From contig CAVUSO010000001.1 in assembly GCA_963744145.1 (NCBI GenBank), forward strand, positions 4,832,001 to 4,896,000: 64,000 nt of DNA, read 5' to 3'. The translations under genes and the position numbers were made by a program. This stretch comes from an uncultured cyanobacterium (GTDB lineage: Bacteria; Cyanobacteriota; Cyanobacteriia; Cyanobacteriales; CAWUOF01). Of this stretch, positions 19,894 through 27,950 are shown piece after piece. A model generated the notes under the pieces. It worked only from the letters and a program-made list of their open reading frames with translations, was not told the DNA's origin and did not search any database. The first letter of the stretch is position 1, and each line of letters starts with the position of its first letter.

Positions 19894-20055
19894 CGGCTAT
19901 TTATGAATCAAATAGATCAGTAAAAAATTCTTGCCCAAAGTGTTAAAAGTGGACGATCGCCAAAAACATTCCCCTGGACAAAGGAGATTACCCTTGGACC
20001 AATGGGAAAGAACAGACCCGGAAATTAGACGAGTAGCAGAAAAATTTGTTATGGC

Positions 20056-20264
20056 TATGACACGAACCGATTTAAAAACTCTTGTTAGTTCGCCAAGTTT
20101 CGGGCTGGATTATTACTCCTTAGCGCCCCATAAAATAACTCTGCTTTTACTACCGAACAAACAGTAATATCTTCTGGCGATATTGTTTGTATCCTTTCTC
20201 TGATTGCCGCCGAACGACCGTTTAAGTATCTCGCACAAACATTAGTATCTAATAAATAAATCAC
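20056..20264 (-). pseudogene. vapC: VapC PIN toxin remnant (not in the ORF track)
   Basis: Manual translation MIYLLDTNVCARYLNGRS...VCSVVKAELFYGALRSNNPARNLAN*QEFLNRFVS*; internal stop and 3' truncation. Confidence 0.8.
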
Positions 20265-20277
20265 AAAATACTATTCC

Positions 20278-20444
20278 TACTCGTCAAATACTCCTACCAA
20301 ATTATCATCCAGTTCTGCTGATATTCCGTCATGATCAATGACAATGGGATCAGTAGCACAACTCCCATAGGTTCTCTCCAAGAACCCCGGTTCCCAGCCT
20401 AATTCCTCTGGTGTTTTCTTCCCTGTTGTAACCTTCTTAAACGT
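20278..20444 (-). pseudogene. Cognate antitoxin, C-terminal fragment cut by a MITE
   Basis: TFKKV...KTPEELGWEPGFLERTYGSCATDP...FDE* directly upstream of vapC. Confidence 0.65.
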
Positions 20445-20604
20445 TACAGCCTATTCCAGATTTATGAAGTTCATCAAGGTGATCTGTGGGGCAGGGCGGG
20501 TTCGTTAATACCTCGACTACGCTCGGCACAAGGGTTATTTGTGTGTGGCAAATTCATCGGTGAACCCGCCCCTACAGAGATTCACCAAAAAATCTGACAT
20601 TCAA

Positions 20605-22848
20605 CCCACATTCCGCACCCTGAACTGTCACAATTCGTAATTACTGAAATAAACCTCTATCAAAGCTGAAATTTTGGCCCACTATCGTCAAAAAAGAGGT
20701 TTTTAAACCTTGATGGTCAGGTCATCAATCTCTAGTTTATTAATAATTATTAGCAATAAGTAGAAAATGAGGATTTCGGCCCGTTTTTTCAATAAATTTT
20801 GGTGTTGACTAGCTCTCTTAACTCAGTTTTGTTAGTTAATAACTGAACAATCTCTAGTTAAGATAGGTTAATTCTTAGCTCTTAATTAAATTCAAGAACT
20901 CATTCAAGCTAAATATATTTATGCTATATTAGCAAGAGGATTAAGTGATAAATTTATAGTAGCGCCGACAATCTTCTGGTAGCAGGGTCAGGATAAATTC
21001 ACGTTCATTACTCCAATTAGATACTTGTTGTTGTTGTTGAAATGTGACCAGGTGAATTGCTTGAAAGCATTGAAATATCCATTTAGCTGTTGGACGGTCT
21101 GTTGCTTTCCCTAACTGATTTTTTATGGTTGATTTTGCTGCTGATAAAGCGGCTCGTATTTGTCTTTGTGCTAGGGTATAAACCAGTAAACCTAGCCCCA
21201 TAATTGCTGCTAATGATTCGATGCGTTCGGGACTTTTCAGATAAACACTATCTGCAAAAAATGTGGGATCTTTAAGAAAACCAAATCCTCTTTCACAGGA
21301 TTGCTGTGCCTTATACTCAGTCAGCATTGCCTCATTACTAATTTCGCTTTCTGCTAAAACGTTCGTCGCAATTATGAATCTACCTGCACTGTTAGTTTCT
21401 TGTTCAATTTGGCTTTTATCCTCGGTAAAACTGCCGAGAATTTGATAACACTTTTTTTGACTTTTATCTAATTTATCTGGTCTGATTTCCCTTACTTCTT
21501 TTGGTTCAATTTGATGATATTTAAAGGATTTCGATAGGTGAGTTAATGCCTTGACTGCATCAGCTTTACAGGCAAATCTATCTTGGGATAATTTTCCTAA
21601 TTCGCTGTTCAGTTTGGTGGCGGATTTACTAATTTTCTGTGATAATTTCCGTAAATCTGATTCTCTTCTTTCTTGACTTTCCACAACTAGCCATCTTTGC
21701 TTTATCCCACCATAAGTCTGCTCTTTTGCCGCCCATGAATATCCAACTAATTTGCTTTTAGTAAATTCTGAATCTGGCAAATTTGCTACTAATTCTTGGG
21801 CTAATTTTATCTTTAACGGTACTCGGCTTAACCACTTAATTTCCGACATTAATTTGAGATTATCTTCTGTATATAAGGCACAATCAGCTACGATTAAACT
21901 ATCTACTTTTATTTGATTTTTATAATCAATTGCTATCTTCGCAAAGCATGATGAGTCGGCTTGATTTCCTGACGCTGCTTTTAAAAATATTGGGATATCT
22001 CCATCCCCGGTACATACTAATTCTATTAAAAATTGTTTTAAATCAGGTCTATGGTCACGGGAATAACCGTAATTTATTTTGATTGGTTGTCGCGATTTTA
22101 TTTGGGGCTCTCCTTGGTATGACAATTCTGGCTGACTAAATATTATCTCTGGTAATTCTTGATGATATTCCCCATGTACGTGAATTGACGATGAGTCTAG
22201 ATGGGATGTATTTAAAGATATATCAAACTTTTTAACTGCATTTAAAGTAATTGCTAAAAATATTGTATCCAGTCCTTTACTATATAGTTTATCCATCACT
22301 CTTCCCAGTTTATCGTCATTTAAATATTCGGGCTTTACCCCGGCTCCTATTAAATGTTCACAGGGAATTGATTCAAAAAATTTCGGAAACATATATAATG
22401 GTTTAGAAATAAATCCTAACCCATTGATAATCATTGCTTTAACTGCTTGTCCAGCAGTAACTTTTTCTCCCGATTCTATCCCGATTAAATTATTAATTAT
22501 TTCTACTATTCCAATCGTATCTACTATTCCTGCTACTAACCCCAGATGGTCGATATTCTGAATTTTAATATCGTTTATGTCTACCATAGTTACCCAATTT
22601 AACGAGCCAATTTTTGGTTCAATTATCGCATTTTTAGGCTCGATTGCAATTAATTTTTTTACTCTTTCATTTTCCGGACTTCTGCTACGGTTAATCTCTC
22701 AATAACCCAGGACCTCTTTCTGCTCATAAATCTAGTTTAATAAAATTTATTCTCATTAATCTCATTTATGATCTTTTTGAGCCAACTTTCTTCGTCCCCA
22801 ATTTTTACCCTTTTATTAAGATGTGCCAGTGAGGGTGCGGAATGTGGG
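20605..22848 (-). mobile_element. Complete IS1634-family insertion sequence
   Basis: 17-bp perfect TIR CCCACATTCCGCACCCT / AGGGTGCGGAATGTGGG; 5-bp direct repeat TTCAA at 20600-20604 and 22849-22853. Confidence 0.92.
20941..22587 (-). CDS. IS1634-family DDE transposase
   Basis: DHLGLVAG, LNDDKLGR, HLDSSS, GYSRDHRPDLKQ, VADCALY, YKAQQSCERGFGFLKDP. Confidence 0.95.
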   Translation of the reverse strand: MVDINDIKIQNIDHLGLVAGIVDTIGIVEIINNLIGIESGEKVTAGQAVKAMIINGLGFISKPLYMFPKFFESIPCEHLIGAGVKPEYLNDDKLGRVMDKLYSKGLDTIFLAITLNAVKKFDISLNTSHLDSSSIHVHGEYHQELPEIIFSQPELSYQGEPQIKSRQPIKINYGYSRDHRPDLKQFLIELVCTGDGDIPIFLKAASGNQADSSCFAKIAIDYKNQIKVDSLIVADCALYTEDNLKLMSEIKWLSRVPLKIKLAQELVANLPDSEFTKSKLVGYSWAAKEQTYGGIKQRWLVVESQERRESDLRKLSQKISKSATKLNSELGKLSQDRFACKADAVKALTHLSKSFKYHQIEPKEVREIRPDKLDKSQKKCYQILGSFTEDKSQIEQETNSAGRFIIATNVLAESEISNEAMLTEYKAQQSCERGFGFLKDPTFFADSVYLKSPERIESLAAIMGLGLLVYTLAQRQIRAALSAAKSTIKNQLGKATDRPTAKWIFQCFQAIHLVTFQQQQQVSNWSNEREFILTLLPEDCRRYYKFIT

Positions 22849-23096
22849 TTCAAGATCAAATTAGCTCATAAAAATGTCTGGTCGATGAATTGATGATCAC
22901 AATCAACCAGGATTTGTAGGGGCAGGTTCACCAATCAATTCTGCTCCAAACAGATAACTATCATAAACCTGCCCAACCAACACAGATCACTCACAATCTC
23001 GGACAGGCAAGATGCCTGTCCCACCATTCATGCCAAATCTTACTGTACTGCATCAACCTAGAATCCGCTGTATTGTTACTCGATTTTCTCTTACCT

Positions 23097-23292
23097 CTTC
23101 GGCACAAAGCCCATCTGGTTAATTTTTTCATTTAATGCCCGCTTTTTTTTGGGAGGCGATTGCACGAACCAATAATCAATCAACACAACTCCCTGTATTT
23201 CCCTGTATTTCCCTGTAGGGGCGAAGCATTCGGGCGAAAAATTATCGCTGACAACGAATAATATTATACCCGAATGCTTCGCCCTTCTTCGC
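23097..23292. repeat. ~190-bp dispersed repeat with GTAG-REP stem-loop (copy B)
   Basis: Direct repeat of 18546-18731 with an extra CCCTGTATTT duplication. Confidence 0.9.
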
Positions 23293-23340
23293 CCGTATCT
23301 CCCAAAAAAAATCTTAATTGATCCGGATTGAATTATCACC

Positions 23341-23520
23341 CAACGCGATCGCCCGAATTATGTTCAATCAACGCGATCGCCCGAATTATGTTCAATCAAC
23401 GCGATCGCCCGAATTATCCTCAATTAACGCGATCGTACTAATTATCCTCAATCAACGCGATCACCCGAATTATGTTCAATTAACACGATCGCCCGAATTA
23501 TGTTCAATCAACGCGATCGC
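23341..23520. repeat. Tandem array of ~6.4 x 28-bp units built on HIP1
   Basis: Unit CAACGCGATCGCCCGAATTATGTTCAAT, head-to-tail with no spacers. Confidence 0.92.
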
Positions 23521-23766
23521 ATCAATCAAATAAACAAAACCAAAATAAAGAGATTATGGCTAATTGCTATGATCCAAAAGTAGCAGCTCAATTTTTTAGT
23601 GATTAAAAACCCTTTTATTTAACCTGGCGAGGAGATGATTAACCGATTATTTCCTTGGTGGACTCTTTTCTCCCATTGCCAGGTATAGAATTTGGAAAAA
23701 GCCTATGATTTCGTAAAAAAAGTCCTCAAAAAAATAGCTTGACAAACTGCCTGAAGTTGTTATATG

Positions 23767-25947
23767 TTACAGGTTACAGGTCTTTGCACGAGAGAAGAGG
23801 TCACCAACAAATCCCTTACTCTTTACCCAAATTCCAAACACTCTTCCACCACCCTCGTCCCTTATCAAAACACCTCCCGAGTACGTGCCGCCGTATGCGG
23901 AGTAATGGGTCATGGCATCACAGGGTAGATATCCCTTTTGTTCTGTTTGTCTATCGAATGTCAAATCTTTTTCGTACAACCATTTTCCTTCGCTCCTCCA
24001 ACCTATTTTATCACAATATTTTTCATAAGTATAATAATCTGCATTTGGTGTTCCACCTAATTCTTCCCATATTCGTTTTTGGACACTAAACCCAAAATGG
24101 TTATCAGAGTATATTAACCATAAATCATCTATAGTGCGAAGGTCTGTACAAGGAAATTCCAGCCAATCACTCCCATTGAGATAGCATTGTTCTTCCAAAT
24201 TAGCAGCCTGAAGAACAAGAAGACGAGTAGTTTTATCAGCTTCATGCCATTTTTCTTCGGCTAAAAGCTCACGTAAAGGAGTATAATCTACATCTACTTC
24301 ACTAAACTCATCACCCACTAATCTTTCTGTGTAACAAATTTTAAATTTTCGGGCATAACGAGCATACTCTCCCCCTAATTTCTGGAGAATAGAAGGTGCT
24401 ATTTCCGCAAAAGGACGTGAATGTCCATAAAATTCACCCTTCGACCCTGGTTTTTCATATCTTAGATAACCAATAAATTCATCCAGGGTCTGACTCTCTT
24501 TTCCAGTTATATATTGGGAAACAATCACAAACACATTAGCTGATTCTGTTCTCCGGGAAGATGCTAATAATTCATCTCGTACTCCCTCAACAAAATCATA
24601 TTCAATGCGATCCGGATTAGTATCTACATTAATCTCAAATGCCAGTTTCAGTAGTCCACCTAGAAACACCTCAGCGACATGAACCTGTCTAGATTTAGGT
24701 AACTTTTTCGCTTGGATAATCCTCACTACTGGCATAGTAATAATTGGAGCTGCTGCGAGCAAACATACCAATTTCCATGCAAGGGGAGACGCAGAATTAT
24801 AAAAACGTCTAACTTTCTGTGCTGGAGAGAGATCATCATTTAAACTTGGCTCATCTTCATCGGGTTCAAACAACTCTGGCTCAAACACAAAACCAGGTGC
24901 CCACACTCTCCCATGACCAGCAACTAACCGAGACCAAACTGTCACCATTTCTGGTTCTAAGGTGACGATCGGTACTTTAACCCCCGTATCCAAATCAATC
25001 TCATCCCAAGCTGACAAAGGTTTTGTTTTGAGACTATGACTAGGAAGTCCAGGAAATAATGCCTGAAATCGTACTGGTGCAGCTAGATCCAGAGCTGTTC
25101 TTGACCAGAGCCATTCGGGGAACATTTGGATAATCGCGATCGAACTATGTTCAGACCACTGTGAAAGAGCTGATAGTACCGTACCATTGTGCCAGTGATC
25201 AGCTATACAATCGGTCGCAATTAAAACTAACCTACGCCCTTGGGGATCAAATAGTTCATTAGGTTTATAAGTCAATTGATTATGGGTAGTTTTTCCCATT
25301 CCTGGACTAAGATAAACCTGTTGATTTGCAATATTTATCCTCCAAATCCGCACATCCCGGAAAATTCCGTATCGTTCTAGCAATATTTTTAGTTCCTGAA
25401 TTGTCTTGTGCCACAGCAACATTGATTTACTTTGATCTACAACTAAAGCTACTTCTAACCAAGGTTCCATCTCTGGTTGTAAAACTGGTATCCAAAGTTG
25501 AGTTTGGGCAATCTGTTCAATTGTCGCTGTTACATCCAGCACCATATTGACACCTGGTACTTGATGAAACAGATAACGAAGGGCACGAGCTAAAGGTAAA
25601 GGTTCTGGTAATGAGCGAGCATCTTTCAGCTTAATCCCTAAATTTCCACTCCCACCAGCTGATTTATGCTCGATCGGTTGAGCATAAATTTCAATTTTTT
25701 CTTGAGGTTGATGCGAACCTGAAGGATGACCATGACGAACGAGCGGATCAGTTGGGGAAAGAGAAGTTTCAGCATCAGGTAGTGGTAACTGCTGAGATGA
25801 TTCTTTAATTACAGGAGGAGCATATACTACTGAGCTATATTGCTGTACTTGCAACGCGAGCCAAATTGTATCGGCAATTTCTTCTGGTCTTAGTCCGATG
25901 GTGCCGAGATTTTCAATCAATTTTTTTGAGCGATCGCGCATAATCAT
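23767..25947 (-). CDS. vWA-like (SAV_2336 N-terminal type) protein with C-terminal GUN4 domain
   Basis: EEIADTIWLA, LARALR, LDVTAT, LVVDQSKSMLLW, RLVLIATDC, VHVAEVFLGGLL, YDFVEGVRDELL; GUN4 motifs DYTPLRELLA..KWHEAD..T, FPCTDLRTIDDLW...S..HFGFSVQKRIW, GYLP. Confidence 0.88.
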   Translation of the reverse strand: MIMRDRSKKLIENLGTIGLRPEEIADTIWLALQVQQYSSVVYAPPVIKESSQQLPLPDAETSLSPTDPLVRHGHPSGSHQPQEKIEIYAQPIEHKSAGGSGNLGIKLKDARSLPEPLPLARALRYLFHQVPGVNMVLDVTATIEQIAQTQLWIPVLQPEMEPWLEVALVVDQSKSMLLWHKTIQELKILLERYGIFRDVRIWRINIANQQVYLSPGMGKTTHNQLTYKPNELFDPQGRRLVLIATDCIADHWHNGTVLSALSQWSEHSSIAIIQMFPEWLWSRTALDLAAPVRFQALFPGLPSHSLKTKPLSAWDEIDLDTGVKVPIVTLEPEMVTVWSRLVAGHGRVWAPGFVFEPELFEPDEDEPSLNDDLSPAQKVRRFYNSASPLAWKLVCLLAAAPIITMPVVRIIQAKKLPKSRQVHVAEVFLGGLLKLAFEINVDTNPDRIEYDFVEGVRDELLASSRRTESANVFVIVSQYITGKESQTLDEFIGYLRYEKPGSKGEFYGHSRPFAEIAPSILQKLGGEYARYARKFKICYTERLVGDEFSEVDVDYTPLRELLAEEKWHEADKTTRLLVLQAANLEEQCYLNGSDWLEFPCTDLRTIDDLWLIYSDNHFGFSVQKRIWEELGGTPNADYYTYEKYCDKIGWRSEGKWLYEKDLTFDRQTEQKGYLPCDAMTHYSAYGGTYSGGVLIRDEGGGRVFGIWVKSKGFVGDLFSRAKTCNL

Positions 25948-25952
25948 TCCGG

Positions 25953-27044
25953 TTATTCGAGAGATTGGAGTAACTGGTCTAGCAAAGTCTTTTTATCAGT
26001 CTCCGCGATCGCAAATTGACGAGCAAGTAAATAAACTACATTAAGTAATTGGTCAGTAGCTACTTTACCAGTTTCTCTGCGTGCAATAAACTCATTAACC
26101 AACTCCTGAATCTGATCTTGTTTAGTATCTTGTTCGAGATAAGCATTAACGATCGCAATCAAAGTATCTTTTTCTGGATTTTCTAGAGTAATCCGTAAAC
26201 ATCTTCTTAAAAAAGCTGGGGGGAAATCCCGTTCACCATTACTGGTCAAAATAGTGATCGGAAATTCGTAACAGCGCACTTTCCCATTGGTAATTTTAGC
26301 GGTACTATTATCATGAGTTTGGACTTCCACCACAGATTTTTGCTCAGGATTAGATTGACCATCATTAAATCTAGCGAAGCGAACTAATTCGGGAATTTTA
26401 TACTCACCTTCCTCAAACAAATTAAGTAAATCATTAGGTAGATTAATATCACTCTTATCGATTTCATCAATTAATAAAACTCGTGGTTTTTTGAAGGGAA
26501 GAAAAGCCGTACCAAGCGGTCCCAAAGTAAAGTAACGACCAATCGAAATCGGCTCAACTTGCTTTAACTCTCCTTTAAGTAGATTATTATTTTGGAACTG
26601 TTGTGCTTGAGCATCTTGGAGACGAGCGATCGCATCATATTGATACAGCCCGTCTTTTAAGGTAGAGCGGGAATTAATGGGCCAAGATAAGACAGATCCA
26701 AGTTTAAGTTCATACGCGATCGCATAAGCGATCGAAGTTTTTCCAGTACCAGGATTACCTTCAACCAGCAAAGGACGACGTAAATAAATAGCAGCATTAA
26801 CTAGATTTAGAAGTTTTTCACCTTCTTTACCTTCGTCATCTTTAGGTATTTGGAAAGTCTTTCCCCGCTTATCATTATTTTCTAATGTATCTACATCAAC
26901 ACATTCTTTTTCGAGATTCTCAGTTTGCTCAAAATTTCGCCATGTCGGAGGAGGAGGGAGTCTGGTAATCCCATCATGGGGGTCAGAATTGCCCCTAAAA
27001 ATCTTCCAATCTTCATCAGGTTTTTGCTCTTGATTACTACTCAT
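25953..27044 (-). CDS. MoxR-family AAA+ ATPase of a ternary conflict system
   Basis: LPPPPTWR, NAAIYLRRPLLVEGNPGTGKTS, VLLIDEIDKSD, TSNGERDFPPAFLRRC, ATDQLLN. Confidence 0.93.
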   Translation of the reverse strand: MSSNQEQKPDEDWKIFRGNSDPHDGITRLPPPPTWRNFEQTENLEKECVDVDTLENNDKRGKTFQIPKDDEGKEGEKLLNLVNAAIYLRRPLLVEGNPGTGKTSIAYAIAYELKLGSVLSWPINSRSTLKDGLYQYDAIARLQDAQAQQFQNNNLLKGELKQVEPISIGRYFTLGPLGTAFLPFKKPRVLLIDEIDKSDINLPNDLLNLFEEGEYKIPELVRFARFNDGQSNPEQKSVVEVQTHDNSTAKITNGKVRCYEFPITILTSNGERDFPPAFLRRCLRITLENPEKDTLIAIVNAYLEQDTKQDQIQELVNEFIARRETGKVATDQLLNVVYLLARQFAIAETDKKTLLDQLLQSLE

Positions 27045-27053
27045 AGGTCACTC

Positions 27054-27950
27054 CTAAGATAATGTGGGAAACTTCCACTTTGGATTTTGGACAGTAGACG
27101 GTAAAAAACAATTAGCATCATCCCATAGCAATACCAAATGATATCCTAAATCTTCTCGTAGTCTATTCTCCCTATGTGCTTGTTTACGCCTAGTAAAGAC
27201 ACGATTTGGAAGATCAATTACACGACCAGCACAAACTAATTTTTCCTGTATTTCAACGCAATGATTTACCTCTGAACTATCGTACCTAGTCCAAATCACT
27301 ATAGGTATACCATCATCCTCTATAATCGACTTAAGAAATTTATCCCTTTGAAAAGGTTTTTCTAAGACTACTCCTAGCTTATTTTCTAGATAAATCGGTT
27401 GAGAGATAATAGGAAAATCATCAGATGTCGGTGAATCTTGGTATCTTTTTATTACTAAATTCCAATTTACTTTCCAGGGTTTATCTTGAACCAATTTTTT
27501 GACTATAGCGTTTTTCTTATCCTTTCTCTTTTCCCTTTCTGTGATGATAAATCTACCTAAATAATGTAATAAAACATTGAACTTTGCTCCAATAGGGTAA
27601 ATTTTGGTTTGATACAAATCAAAAAAATCCCATTTATCAATATCAAAATCCTTAGAATATAACAGATGTTCTGGTATAAAAAAATCAATCGTTATATTAT
27701 TTAAGCTTTTTTCTGTATTCAAGATCCATTGTGATTCATTTAAAAAAAGGTTTATGGCAACTTTCAATTCTGGCAATGATAAAGATAAATTCGCAATATG
27801 GGTACGTTTATCATAATATTCTATATCTTTAATTTTCGCTAAGATTTTTGGTGATATATGTGATATATATTCTGAAGTCTCATCTTCCCAATCTGCAAAT
27901 AAAATACTAGATCCGAATGCTTCGCCCTTTTCTACGCCGAGATCCCTCAA
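27054..27950 (-). CDS. vWA-MoxR-associated protein (VMAP) C-terminal domain; probably 5'-truncated
   Basis: IDFFIPEHLL, GIPIVIWTR, LPNRV..RR, HLVLLWDD motifs; the first ~13 codons overlap a REP half-arm. Confidence 0.75.
   Translation of the reverse strand: MRDLGVEKGEAFGSSILFADWEDETSEYISHISPKILAKIKDIEYYDKRTHIANLSLSLPELKVAINLFLNESQWILNTEKSLNNITIDFFIPEHLLYSKDFDIDKWDFFDLYQTKIYPIGAKFNVLLHYLGRFIITEREKRKDKKNAIVKKLVQDKPWKVNWNLVIKRYQDSPTSDDFPIISQPIYLENKLGVVLEKPFQRDKFLKSIIEDDGIPIVIWTRYDSSEVNHCVEIQEKLVCAGRVIDLPNRVFTRRKQAHRENRLREDLGYHLVLLWDDANCFLPSTVQNPKWKFPTLS

Follow-up and report, generated by a model that had tools for sequence, protein, structure and literature searches.

The 64-kb window analysed here, by which we mean the whole stretch of cyanobacterial DNA presented above, carries a gene of 726 amino acids (23767..25947, minus strand) that combines a vWA-type region (SAV_2336 N-terminal domain) with a GUN4 domain, and whose 3' end consists of a hypervariable coding stretch running into a short constant DNA element faced by the remains of a Y1 (HUH) transposase gene. 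According to the list of open reading frames (ORFs), Pfam and NCBIfam, residues 21-483 match the SAV_2336-type vWA model NF041121 (E 8e-124) and residues 549-676 match GUN4 (PF05419; E 4.7e-33, 114.8 bits against a cut-off of 29.2, model positions 2-124 of 141). Pfam and alignment place the GUN4 domain, up to and including a GYLP motif, at 23920..24303 (minus strand); the motif itself, at 23923-23934 on the same strand, aligns with GHLP, residues 205-208 of Synechocystis Gun4. After GYLP the protein continues for 41 residues and then ends in LFSRAKTCNL. The corresponding 123 nucleotides (nt), 41 codons at 23800..23922 (minus strand), were delimited by alignment and composition and are referred to below as the variable stretch. 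Its initial ~36 nt (CDAMTHYSAYGG) are common to a few paralogues, and the remainder is G/T-rich and C-poor. Over 23801-23880 the coding strand holds 35 G, 24 T, 19 A and 2 C, the strongest G-over-C skew among the 80-nt stretches of the gene; G of at least 35 together with C of at most 2 was met in one of 12,784 80-nt segments taken along the 64 kb on both strands (step 10).

Directly beyond the variable stretch lies the constant element, about 124-125 nt long and sharply bounded (23676..23799, minus strand), as defined by aligning 28 copies drawn from the window's own genome and from others. Its near edge is a CT-rich run and its far edge the motif RATACCTGGCAC, here present as TATACCTGGCAA at 23676-23688 on the plus strand and assigned with the help of motif counts. 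From the sequence and the copy alignment, the translated start of the element (23753..23799, minus strand) comprises the CT-rich run followed by three heptamers ending in TAA. These codons, on the minus strand at 23774-23776, 23767-23769 (the stop used here) and 23760-23762, are spaced by 7 nt, thus providing one stop per frame. The CT-rich run encodes alike peptides in every frame (SLLSR, LFSRA and SSLAQR, as read from the copy list), and the sequence is conserved for ~80 nt beyond the stops. A preliminary description of this DNA, made from the letters alone, had reported the G-skewed loop of about 41 codons after GYLP, the LFSRAKTCNL ending and the three 7-mers with a TAA in each frame; all of these, base counts included, proved exact. 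Conservation of the 3' sequence between 23530 and 23760, which that description had proposed to check, was found as far as the element's far edge at 23676.

The arrangement recurs in the rest of the 7.7-Mb, 4-contig genome, where 54 GUN4 matches were found and each was extended to its stop. The block and the 100 nt following it served as query in an iterated nhmmer search; all of the 24 element matches that it gave lie immediately 3' of a GUN4 match and on its strand. Nine of these copies end at the first stop (SRKDL-type tails), seven at the second (TCNL-type) and three at the third (C(N/K)I-type), the remaining five being read through, deleted or without an ORF; the statement in the preliminary description that GUN4 paralogues use all three tail types is therefore borne out by this genome's own copies. 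A second, diverged version of the block is present at about 10 other GUN4 ends and is likewise read in more than one frame. The comparison genomes belonged to other families of the order, with none from the window's own genus; in them, element identity was 72-83% and the element was always located at the ends of GUN4 ORFs. The stop lay 24, 31 or 38 nt from the element start in 14, 12 and 10 of 36 distinct elements, respectively, a near-uniform usage, as expected for random stretch length modulo 3. All three frames close within 38 nt of the element start. Of the 24 own copies 13 show the pattern stop-N4-stop-N4-stop, as do 27 of 34 distinct copies of relatives, and its frequency among 20,000 random 60-mers from the genome is 0.67%. 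Stops in all three frames within ~60 nt were found in 15 of 24 and 29 of 34 copies, respectively, against 20.8% of random 60-mers. At each of the three positions TAA, TAG and TGA interchange, which points to selection for a stop in every frame and not for particular letters. The constant cassette with its triple stop is thus kept at the nucleotide level, with all three stops in use, as had been anticipated.

Other signals were sought in the element. Rfam gave no match on it and no terminator-like site was found. A putative promoter-like site (TTGACA-18 nt-TATGTT, 10 of 12 matches), identified from sequence only, lies at 23739..23768 on the plus strand and is directed into the 3' end of the gene; one such site was found against 0.8 expected from shuffles, which is not significant by count, and by eye the two hexamers are retained with equal spacing in diverged element copies. 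An antisense ORF through the element is open in some copies, and was rejected as a candidate because indels and non-synonymous changes break it. Several individual copies are also of note. At contig 1:4710400-4710430, a 5-nt deletion in the block pulls a TAA forward and creates a fourth, shorter tail ending in LFSRAK. One locus of genome G072 (L092) shows a 13-nt tandem duplication of the block start and a duplicated ~36-nt piece near the far end, indicating that the element's own edges also undergo duplication. Finally, a 1066-amino-acid protein (contig 1:7458283-7460436) contains four tandem GUN4 domains, each with its own unrelated G/T-rich stretch, and every stretch is followed by a read-through block of the second type (containing LLFSSLDSNMVPTP).

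The composition of the variable stretches is a property of the DNA. In a set of 25 stretches, of which three rows were duplicates from a multi-domain gene, base fractions were G 0.457, T 0.319, A 0.141 and C 0.083. G made up 0.50, 0.44 and 0.43 of codon positions 1, 2 and 3 in the stretches, against 0.30, 0.21 and 0.18 in the domain, and 0.44, 0.37 and 0.40 in the stretches of relatives; G-richness equal at all codon positions indicates a bias acting at the DNA level. Consistently, Gly, Val, Leu and Cys have high ranks whichever of the three frames is read, and Trp ranks third in the real frame and fourth and tenth in the alternative ones. Since the stretches are G/T-rich at every codon position, the Gly/Val/Trp/Cys-rich peptide would be a by-product of DNA composition. 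The bias is maximal within 50 nt of the element and has vanished by 81-90 nt. G-quadruplex (G4) motifs of the G3 type occurred in 7 of 20 stretches and in none of 20 controls, a number no higher than composition predicts (shuffles: mean 3.6, maximum 8).

Comparison of closely related copies showed that variability is confined to this stretch. In a recent duplicate pair (contig 1, near 3.279 and 4.710 Mb), identity per 120-nt block is 86-96% across more than 1 kb on the upstream side and 78-96% on the downstream side, whereas the region from ~8 codons before GHLP to the element is unalignable and of unequal length. A second family, with six copies, shows upstream identities of 0.90-0.96 over 240 nt and downstream identities of 0.88-0.98 over 110 nt (~0.6 for the terminal against an internal read-through copy), with stretches of 51-85 nt whose borders coincide precisely with the end of the GHLP codons on one side and with the CT-rich run on the other. 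The same picture was obtained between species: in two species of one genus (G072 and G011) the flanks are 80-97% identical and the ~180 nt beside the element ~45%, and syntenic loci of two genera (L050 and L051) have stretches of 72 and 53 nt with different tail frames. Among 20 stretches of the genome, 30 to 158 nt long, mean identity over 190 pairs was 0.488 (standard deviation 0.095), against 0.493 (standard deviation 0.098) for shuffled sequences. Loops that cannot be aligned, vary in length and are not frame-conserved, set between constant flanks, were thus seen in both paralogues and orthologues, as the preliminary description had supposed. A single sequencing run (X1), a soil metagenome, contained the window DNA; its Logan contigs are assembled sequence and cannot show read-level variants, and the contig concerned spans 23819-24546 with one difference and ends inside the variable stretch. 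Among RNA data sets, none was listed as containing this DNA.

No second copy of any of the 20 stretches was found in the genome, all other matches being low-complexity ones of at most 25 nt. Every stretch matches itself alone, so there is neither a template repeat nor a silent donor for it. In four of 48 stretches, sequence is duplicated in tandem (about 24, 31 and 57 nt) or the left border recurs as a snap-back copy, which are marks of template switching; matches derived from the flanks were not enriched overall (longest match 6.90 against 6.68 in shuffled sequences, n=48). The preliminary description had proposed a length-changing rewriting distinct from the substitutions of diversity-generating retroelements (DGRs). 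The missing template copy and the differing lengths favour this proposal, the rewriting itself being deduced from comparison between copies.

The element is faced by a second gene. Downstream of several element copies lies a convergent, decayed and variously truncated gene 3' end, terminating in VAEKFVMANCYDPKVAAQFFNDS. In the window, the last ~24 codons of this IS200-like, TnpA_REP-like Y1 gene, ending in MANCYDPKVAAQFFSD, were located by tblastn at 23532..23606 (plus strand), and an upstream piece ending in RRVAEKFVMA was located at 19925..20056 (plus strand) from the ORF list and tblastn; the remnant corresponds to the C-terminal part of the gene, divided by a ~3.5-kb insertion. The preliminary description had held that the machinery would act in trans, no reverse transcriptase (RT) or template lying in the window; the Y1 remnant, left from the likely machinery, is however present there. 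Intact relatives of the gene are 257-321 amino acids long and carry, like REP/RAYT proteins, the motifs NH[VI]H and YIHANP (HUH and catalytic Tyr); four of four matched Y1_Tnp in Pfam (E 6e-19 to 2.5e-18), and no match to solved structures was obtained by sequence. In a BLAST survey that scored the best 5 candidates per genome, a query from the C-terminal part of Y1 had matches in 42 of 151 genomes of the order, and the element with its facing GUN4 ORF adjoined the Y1 stop in 10 of 11 loci around Y1 matches. Upstream of Y1, nothing conserved was found in 9 loci, which argues against a two-ended insertion sequence (IS). The genome of the window contains one near-intact copy (contig 1:6188688-6189446, 252 amino acids), its C-terminus cut by a stop.

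The syntenic loci L050 and L051 allowed element and transposase to be compared. Identity is 85-95% from the near edge of the element through Y1 to ~260 nt beyond, and 55-80% on the side of the GUN4 gene. Four-fold degenerate sites were identical at 0.66 of 92 sites in Y1 and at 0.42 of 96 sites in the kinase-GUN4 gene. The non-coding element is ~93% identical, well above the four-fold sites of Y1, indicating that it is under constraint. At these two loci and at two others (L047 and L048), the Y1 ORF reads through the shared motif (as VPGIG or CQVSE), so that the motif can fall within the transposase's own C-terminal codons.

The same transposase family leads to a second, unrelated group of variable genes. 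In a bioRxiv preprint (10.1101/2020.03.09.984088), prochlorosin precursor (procA) genes were reported to face tnpA_REP genes and to combine a conserved leader and conserved intergenic DNA with an indel-rich core, with C-terminal transposase fragments and a G-rich border at the loci, and diversifying recombination was proposed. The Y1 family described here is 50-55% identical (E 1e-75 to 1e-80) to genes in two 2.7-Mb genomes of another order. In one of these, the picocyanobacterium G317, such genes face procA-type ORFs, and the sequences 3' of the transposase gene and of the procA genes end in the motif of the GUN4 element, RATACCTGGCAC; seven of nine motif sites examined in G317 follow procA-type genes and two follow another gene family. 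Counted as the pattern TGCCAGGTATYGR, with the reversed pattern as control, the motif gave 24 hits against 1 in G317, 7 against 0 in G274, 6 (4 of them in elements) against 1 in the window's own genome, and 155 against 16 in the 151 genomes of the order. Of the 42 Y1-positive genomes 35 contain it, compared with 52 of the 109 others; no P value is attached to these figures because kin are not independent. By eye, many sites lie within a few hundred nt of C-terminal Y1 matches. One further observation concerns the non-procA family of G317 (L109, G317:C1:452300-455900), which has RATACCTGGCAC 66-73 nt beyond its stops and C-termini of the type HCTGG..WVGWQRI; a family of ~300 amino acids that faces tnpA_REP genes, with ends like HCNPGAPKATPAGWEPA, may be the same.

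The position of the variable stretch within the protein suggests what its variation could affect. Alignment of the GUN4 domain to structure 1y6i stops at GHLP (residues 205-208), with the variable stretch coming next, so that it occupies the position of the ligand-contacting end of GUN4. It replaces Gun4 residues 209-233, that is, LxNxLR, Arg214/Arg217 and helices alpha7-alpha8. In Gun4, according to the available text of one study, the residues following GHLP form the LxNxLR motif, whose Asn211 is required for bilin binding and is missing from all Gun4 paralogues (PMC10156173); the accessible part of another describes Arg214 as essential, Arg217 as contributing, and Leu210 with helices alpha7-8 as belonging to the porphyrin pocket (PMC1084334). 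LxNxLR with Asn211/Arg214 and alpha7-8 are absent after GHLP in the window protein, which separates it from a true Gun4 orthologue acting as Mg-chelatase cofactor.

The vWA-GUN4 gene is the last of a three-gene operon (upstream genes at 25953-27950) consisting of VMAP-C (27054-27950, at the upstream end), a MoxR-like AAA gene (25953-27044) and vWA. Such a VMAP-C/MoxR/vWA set is described as a ternary conflict-type system in an eLife paper on VMAPs which, in its accessible portion, treats GUN4 solely as a tetrapyrrole sensor (PMC7159879). GUN4 domains in fusions with caspase, kinase, TIR, STAND/FGE-sulfatase or vWA parts have the identical tail type too; the variable tail is tied to MoxR-vWA systems only incidentally and is not specific to them. 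The insertion dividing the Y1 remnant (20057-23531) contains an IS and tandem repeats. The IS, whose transposase gene (DUF4277) lies at 20941..22587 (minus strand; ORF list and Pfam), splits the remnant and does not belong to the module. A hairpin repeat of ~70 nt (23214-23289) that looks perfect and has spurious Rfam microRNA matches, and a tandem array of ~28-nt units with GCGATCGC (about 23320-23530) also lie within the insertion, the hairpin repeat being separate from the element.

Taken together, the data leave little doubt that the module and its hypervariability are real, and the initial observation is confirmed; its initial interpretation is partly supported. The balance is even on whether the tail flagged in the window is a copy of a conserved cyanobacterial module with local indel-type rewriting tied to Y1, and the odds seem somewhat against Y1 being itself the driver of stretch change. 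We infer that a dedicated process produces the change and that the G/T bias stems from biased untemplated or slippage synthesis. In the scheme that we favour, the stretch after GHLP/GYLP would be rewritten locally by insertions, duplications and deletions, so that genes nearly identical elsewhere would have stretches with no relation in sequence or length. The CT-rich coding run and the three heptamer-spaced stops, all within the initial ~45 nt of the element, would ensure that any stretch length gives a complete protein. The motif RATACCTGGCAC would mark the 3' side of the TnpA_REP-like Y1 transposase family. Y1, made in cis or in trans, may bind the single-stranded element and nick at or near the junction between stretch and element, HUH chemistry leaving a free 3'-OH; before resealing, the stretch could then be altered by extension (error-prone or untemplated), by template switching or by resection. 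The net effect would be a varied pocket (end of the alpha6/alpha7 loop, with alpha7-8 replaced) of a sensor domain on immune-type proteins. With the cis Y1 of the window destroyed, this copy would either be served in trans, for instance from contig 1:6188688-6189446, or no longer be changing. As a tentative generalisation, we propose that cyanobacteria have a diversifier that needs no RT and is set off by an HUH nuclease. In it, a domesticated TnpA_REP-like Y1 would nick the RATACCTGGCAC-marked element, and untemplated or template-switch synthesis would rewrite the adjoining coding stretch; a single machinery would thus act on two or more unrelated gene families, GUN4 ligand loops and prochlorosin cores among them, and the GUN4 element would have evolved a frame-tolerant coding end.

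Several observations weigh against this proposal. The genome has 24 elements and a single near-intact Y1, which has no GUN4 gene beside it, and at least 11 of 27 element-positive genomes had no match to the C-terminal Y1 query. No consensus pairing was found on either strand of the element (RNAalifold on 21 of the 28 copies, 7 truncated or poorly aligned ones being left out), that is, no hairpin of the kind typical for Y1 recognition. Some copies are broken: a ~57-nt tandem duplication in the stretch ends one ORF early (L047, G070), and the orthologue in G011 (L093) lacks the second half of the GUN4 domain and carries a stop. Broken copies are equally expected from plain instability. No near-identical relatives were found by genome comparison, a metagenome scan giving one distant match. 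The authors of the procA preprint, moreover, later stated that there is no strong evidence for or against causality.

The main rival, although we consider it rather unlikely, is plain instability, with Y1 hitch-hiking and the motif serving it as a site of its own. Instability would make the G/T-rich, G4-prone, low-complexity tract a hotspot of slippage, template switching and break repair in the absence of any dedicated diversifier; the element would be kept for another reason, as a 3' untranslated region or antisense promoter, and the three stops would persist because frameshifts are frequent. Such a reading gains from the G7-G8 runs beside the element in many copies, from the G4 motifs, from duplications and a snap-back copy resembling ordinary template switching, from the promoter-like site at a fixed element position, and from the broken copies and the persistence of elements in genomes without a detected Y1. 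However, slippage alone would leave some similarity between copies that differ by 2-8% in their flanks, both edges are sharp and fixed, the G4 count stays within the expectation from composition, and neither the origin of a G/T-rich tract at the same place in many gene lineages nor the recurrence of Y1, motif and variable gene end with procA, an unrelated family, is accounted for. The readings in terms of IS ends and of flank homogenisation are weaker. If element and Y1 were an IS-like unit landing repeatedly at GUN4 ends, the stretch would be a junction scar and the ORFs would merely read into an element end with all-frame stops, as many IS ends have. The block of 85-95% identity between L050 and L051, lower on both sides, the higher conservation of four-fold sites in Y1 than in the neighbouring gene, and the differently truncated Y1 remnants beside several copies could be so understood. 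We nevertheless find this improbable: the two ends, subterminal hairpins and multiple near-identical copies of IS200/IS605 elements were not found, copies being few and diverged in each genome, and a 4-5-nt IS200-type target cannot confine 24 of 24 elements to GUN4 ends. Moreover, duplicated paralogues carry the element together with more than 1 kb of their own upstream sequence, which indicates co-duplication rather than new insertion.

The same duplicates bear on the suggestion that the stretches diverged long ago and that gene conversion keeps the flanks alike, which appears quite improbable. Four near-identical copies are indeed tandem repeats in one gene, where concerted evolution is expected. 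The pair near 3.279 and 4.710 Mb, however, shares more than 1 kb of upstream sequence absent from other paralogues, pointing to a plain recent duplication; orthologues from two species give the same picture, and the G/T bias at all codon positions would remain unexplained. Selection of the tail as a peptide, as a C-terminal anchor or sorting signal, would be in line with hydrophobic residues followed by Arg/Lys, but it is ruled out for practical purposes by conservation of a DNA unit that is read in three frames and runs ~80 nt past the stop, and by third codon positions that are equally G-rich; besides, many stretches, including that of the window, are charged throughout. Even less credence can be given to a DGR or to another templated system, whether it worked by retrohoming off a template repeat or by gene conversion with silent cassettes as donors. 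As the available text of one survey indicates, N-terminal domains of the same kinds occur on cyanobacterial DGR targets, some of which lie near IS200/IS605 transposases (PMC7517822), and three RVT_1 genes exist elsewhere in the genome. Nevertheless, the absence of a template copy for 20 of 20 stretches and their unequal lengths exclude this reading; no RT was found among the window ORFs around the gene nor beside any locus examined, and nothing aligns, so an adenine-specific pattern has no basis for comparison.

Few bacterial ways to vary one piece of a gene are known, among them DGRs, invertase shufflons, silent-cassette conversion and slipped-strand switches. If the proposed scheme is true, a length-changing route to diversification needing neither template nor RT would be added to them, and a role would be found for a large class of domesticated Y1 transposases, similar to subclass 2.1, that are without a known REP (repetitive extragenic palindromic) partner. 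A connection would also be made between the unexplained prochlorosin radiation and the GUN4 paralogues that form large families on caspase, kinase, TIR, STAND and vWA-MoxR proteins. The shared 13-nt motif and the ~125-nt element are concrete substrates for biochemistry, and the frame-proof coding end is an unusual sequence design of its own. The N-regions of V(D)J joints consist of untemplated, G-rich, length-variable DNA between two fixed borders, as is proposed here for the stretch, and the module could be regarded as a bacterial counterpart of junctional diversity. This would be a functional analogy only, with no homology and no sign here of a terminal transferase or double-strand break.

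In the literature on GUN4, cyanobacterial RAYT/IS200, orthocaspases and prochlorosin diversification, no description was found of the GUN4 tail, the element or the tie to Y1, although the supplements of the preprint could bear on the motif. Among known systems, cyanobacterial DGRs resemble the module in that what varies is the C-terminal, ligand-binding part of kinase, caspase or TIR-type proteins, with constant DNA 3' of the variable region, to judge from the accessible part of PMC7517822. They differ in having an RT and a template repeat, in acting by A-to-N substitution and not by length change, and in the fold that is varied, which is a C-type lectin there and GUN4 here. Contingency loci share the G runs seen in some copies and the expectation of frame changes; here, however, the sequence itself, beyond repeat number, differs between copies, and a frameshift does not silence the gene because all three frames end properly. 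With REP/RAYT systems the module has in common a low-copy, apparently domesticated Y1 HUH gene beside a short conserved dispersed DNA element. Judging by its motifs (NH[VI]H, WE, YIHxNP) and length of 257-321 amino acids, the Y1 family would fit subclass 2.1, for which the available text of PMC6006769 gives a C-terminal extension and reports no REP. Unlike a REP, the GUN4 element is neither palindromic nor extragenic, lies on one side of the gene and is restricted to the ends of one gene family.

The closest likeness is to procA/tnpA_REP, for which a mechanism has only been proposed, the causal link being later called open by its authors; they also noted later that the closest relatives of those transposases in other cyanobacteria have no lanthipeptide partner (10.1101/2020.03.09.984088). 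In the present module the place of a lanthipeptide precursor with a Nif11-type leader is taken by a GUN4 domain that forms part of large signalling or immune-type proteins, the ORF extends into the constant element, whose coding run tolerates any frame and is followed by three stops at heptamer spacing, the stretch is strongly G/T-rich, and no terminator hairpin was found. In both systems, nonetheless, the variable gene faces a Y1 gene of the same family (a split remnant in the window), a conserved 5' part and conserved intergenic DNA enclose indel-rich variability confined to the region between them, C-terminal transposase fragments are scattered among the copies, there is a G-rich border, and RATACCTGGCAC stands at the far end of the 3' element.

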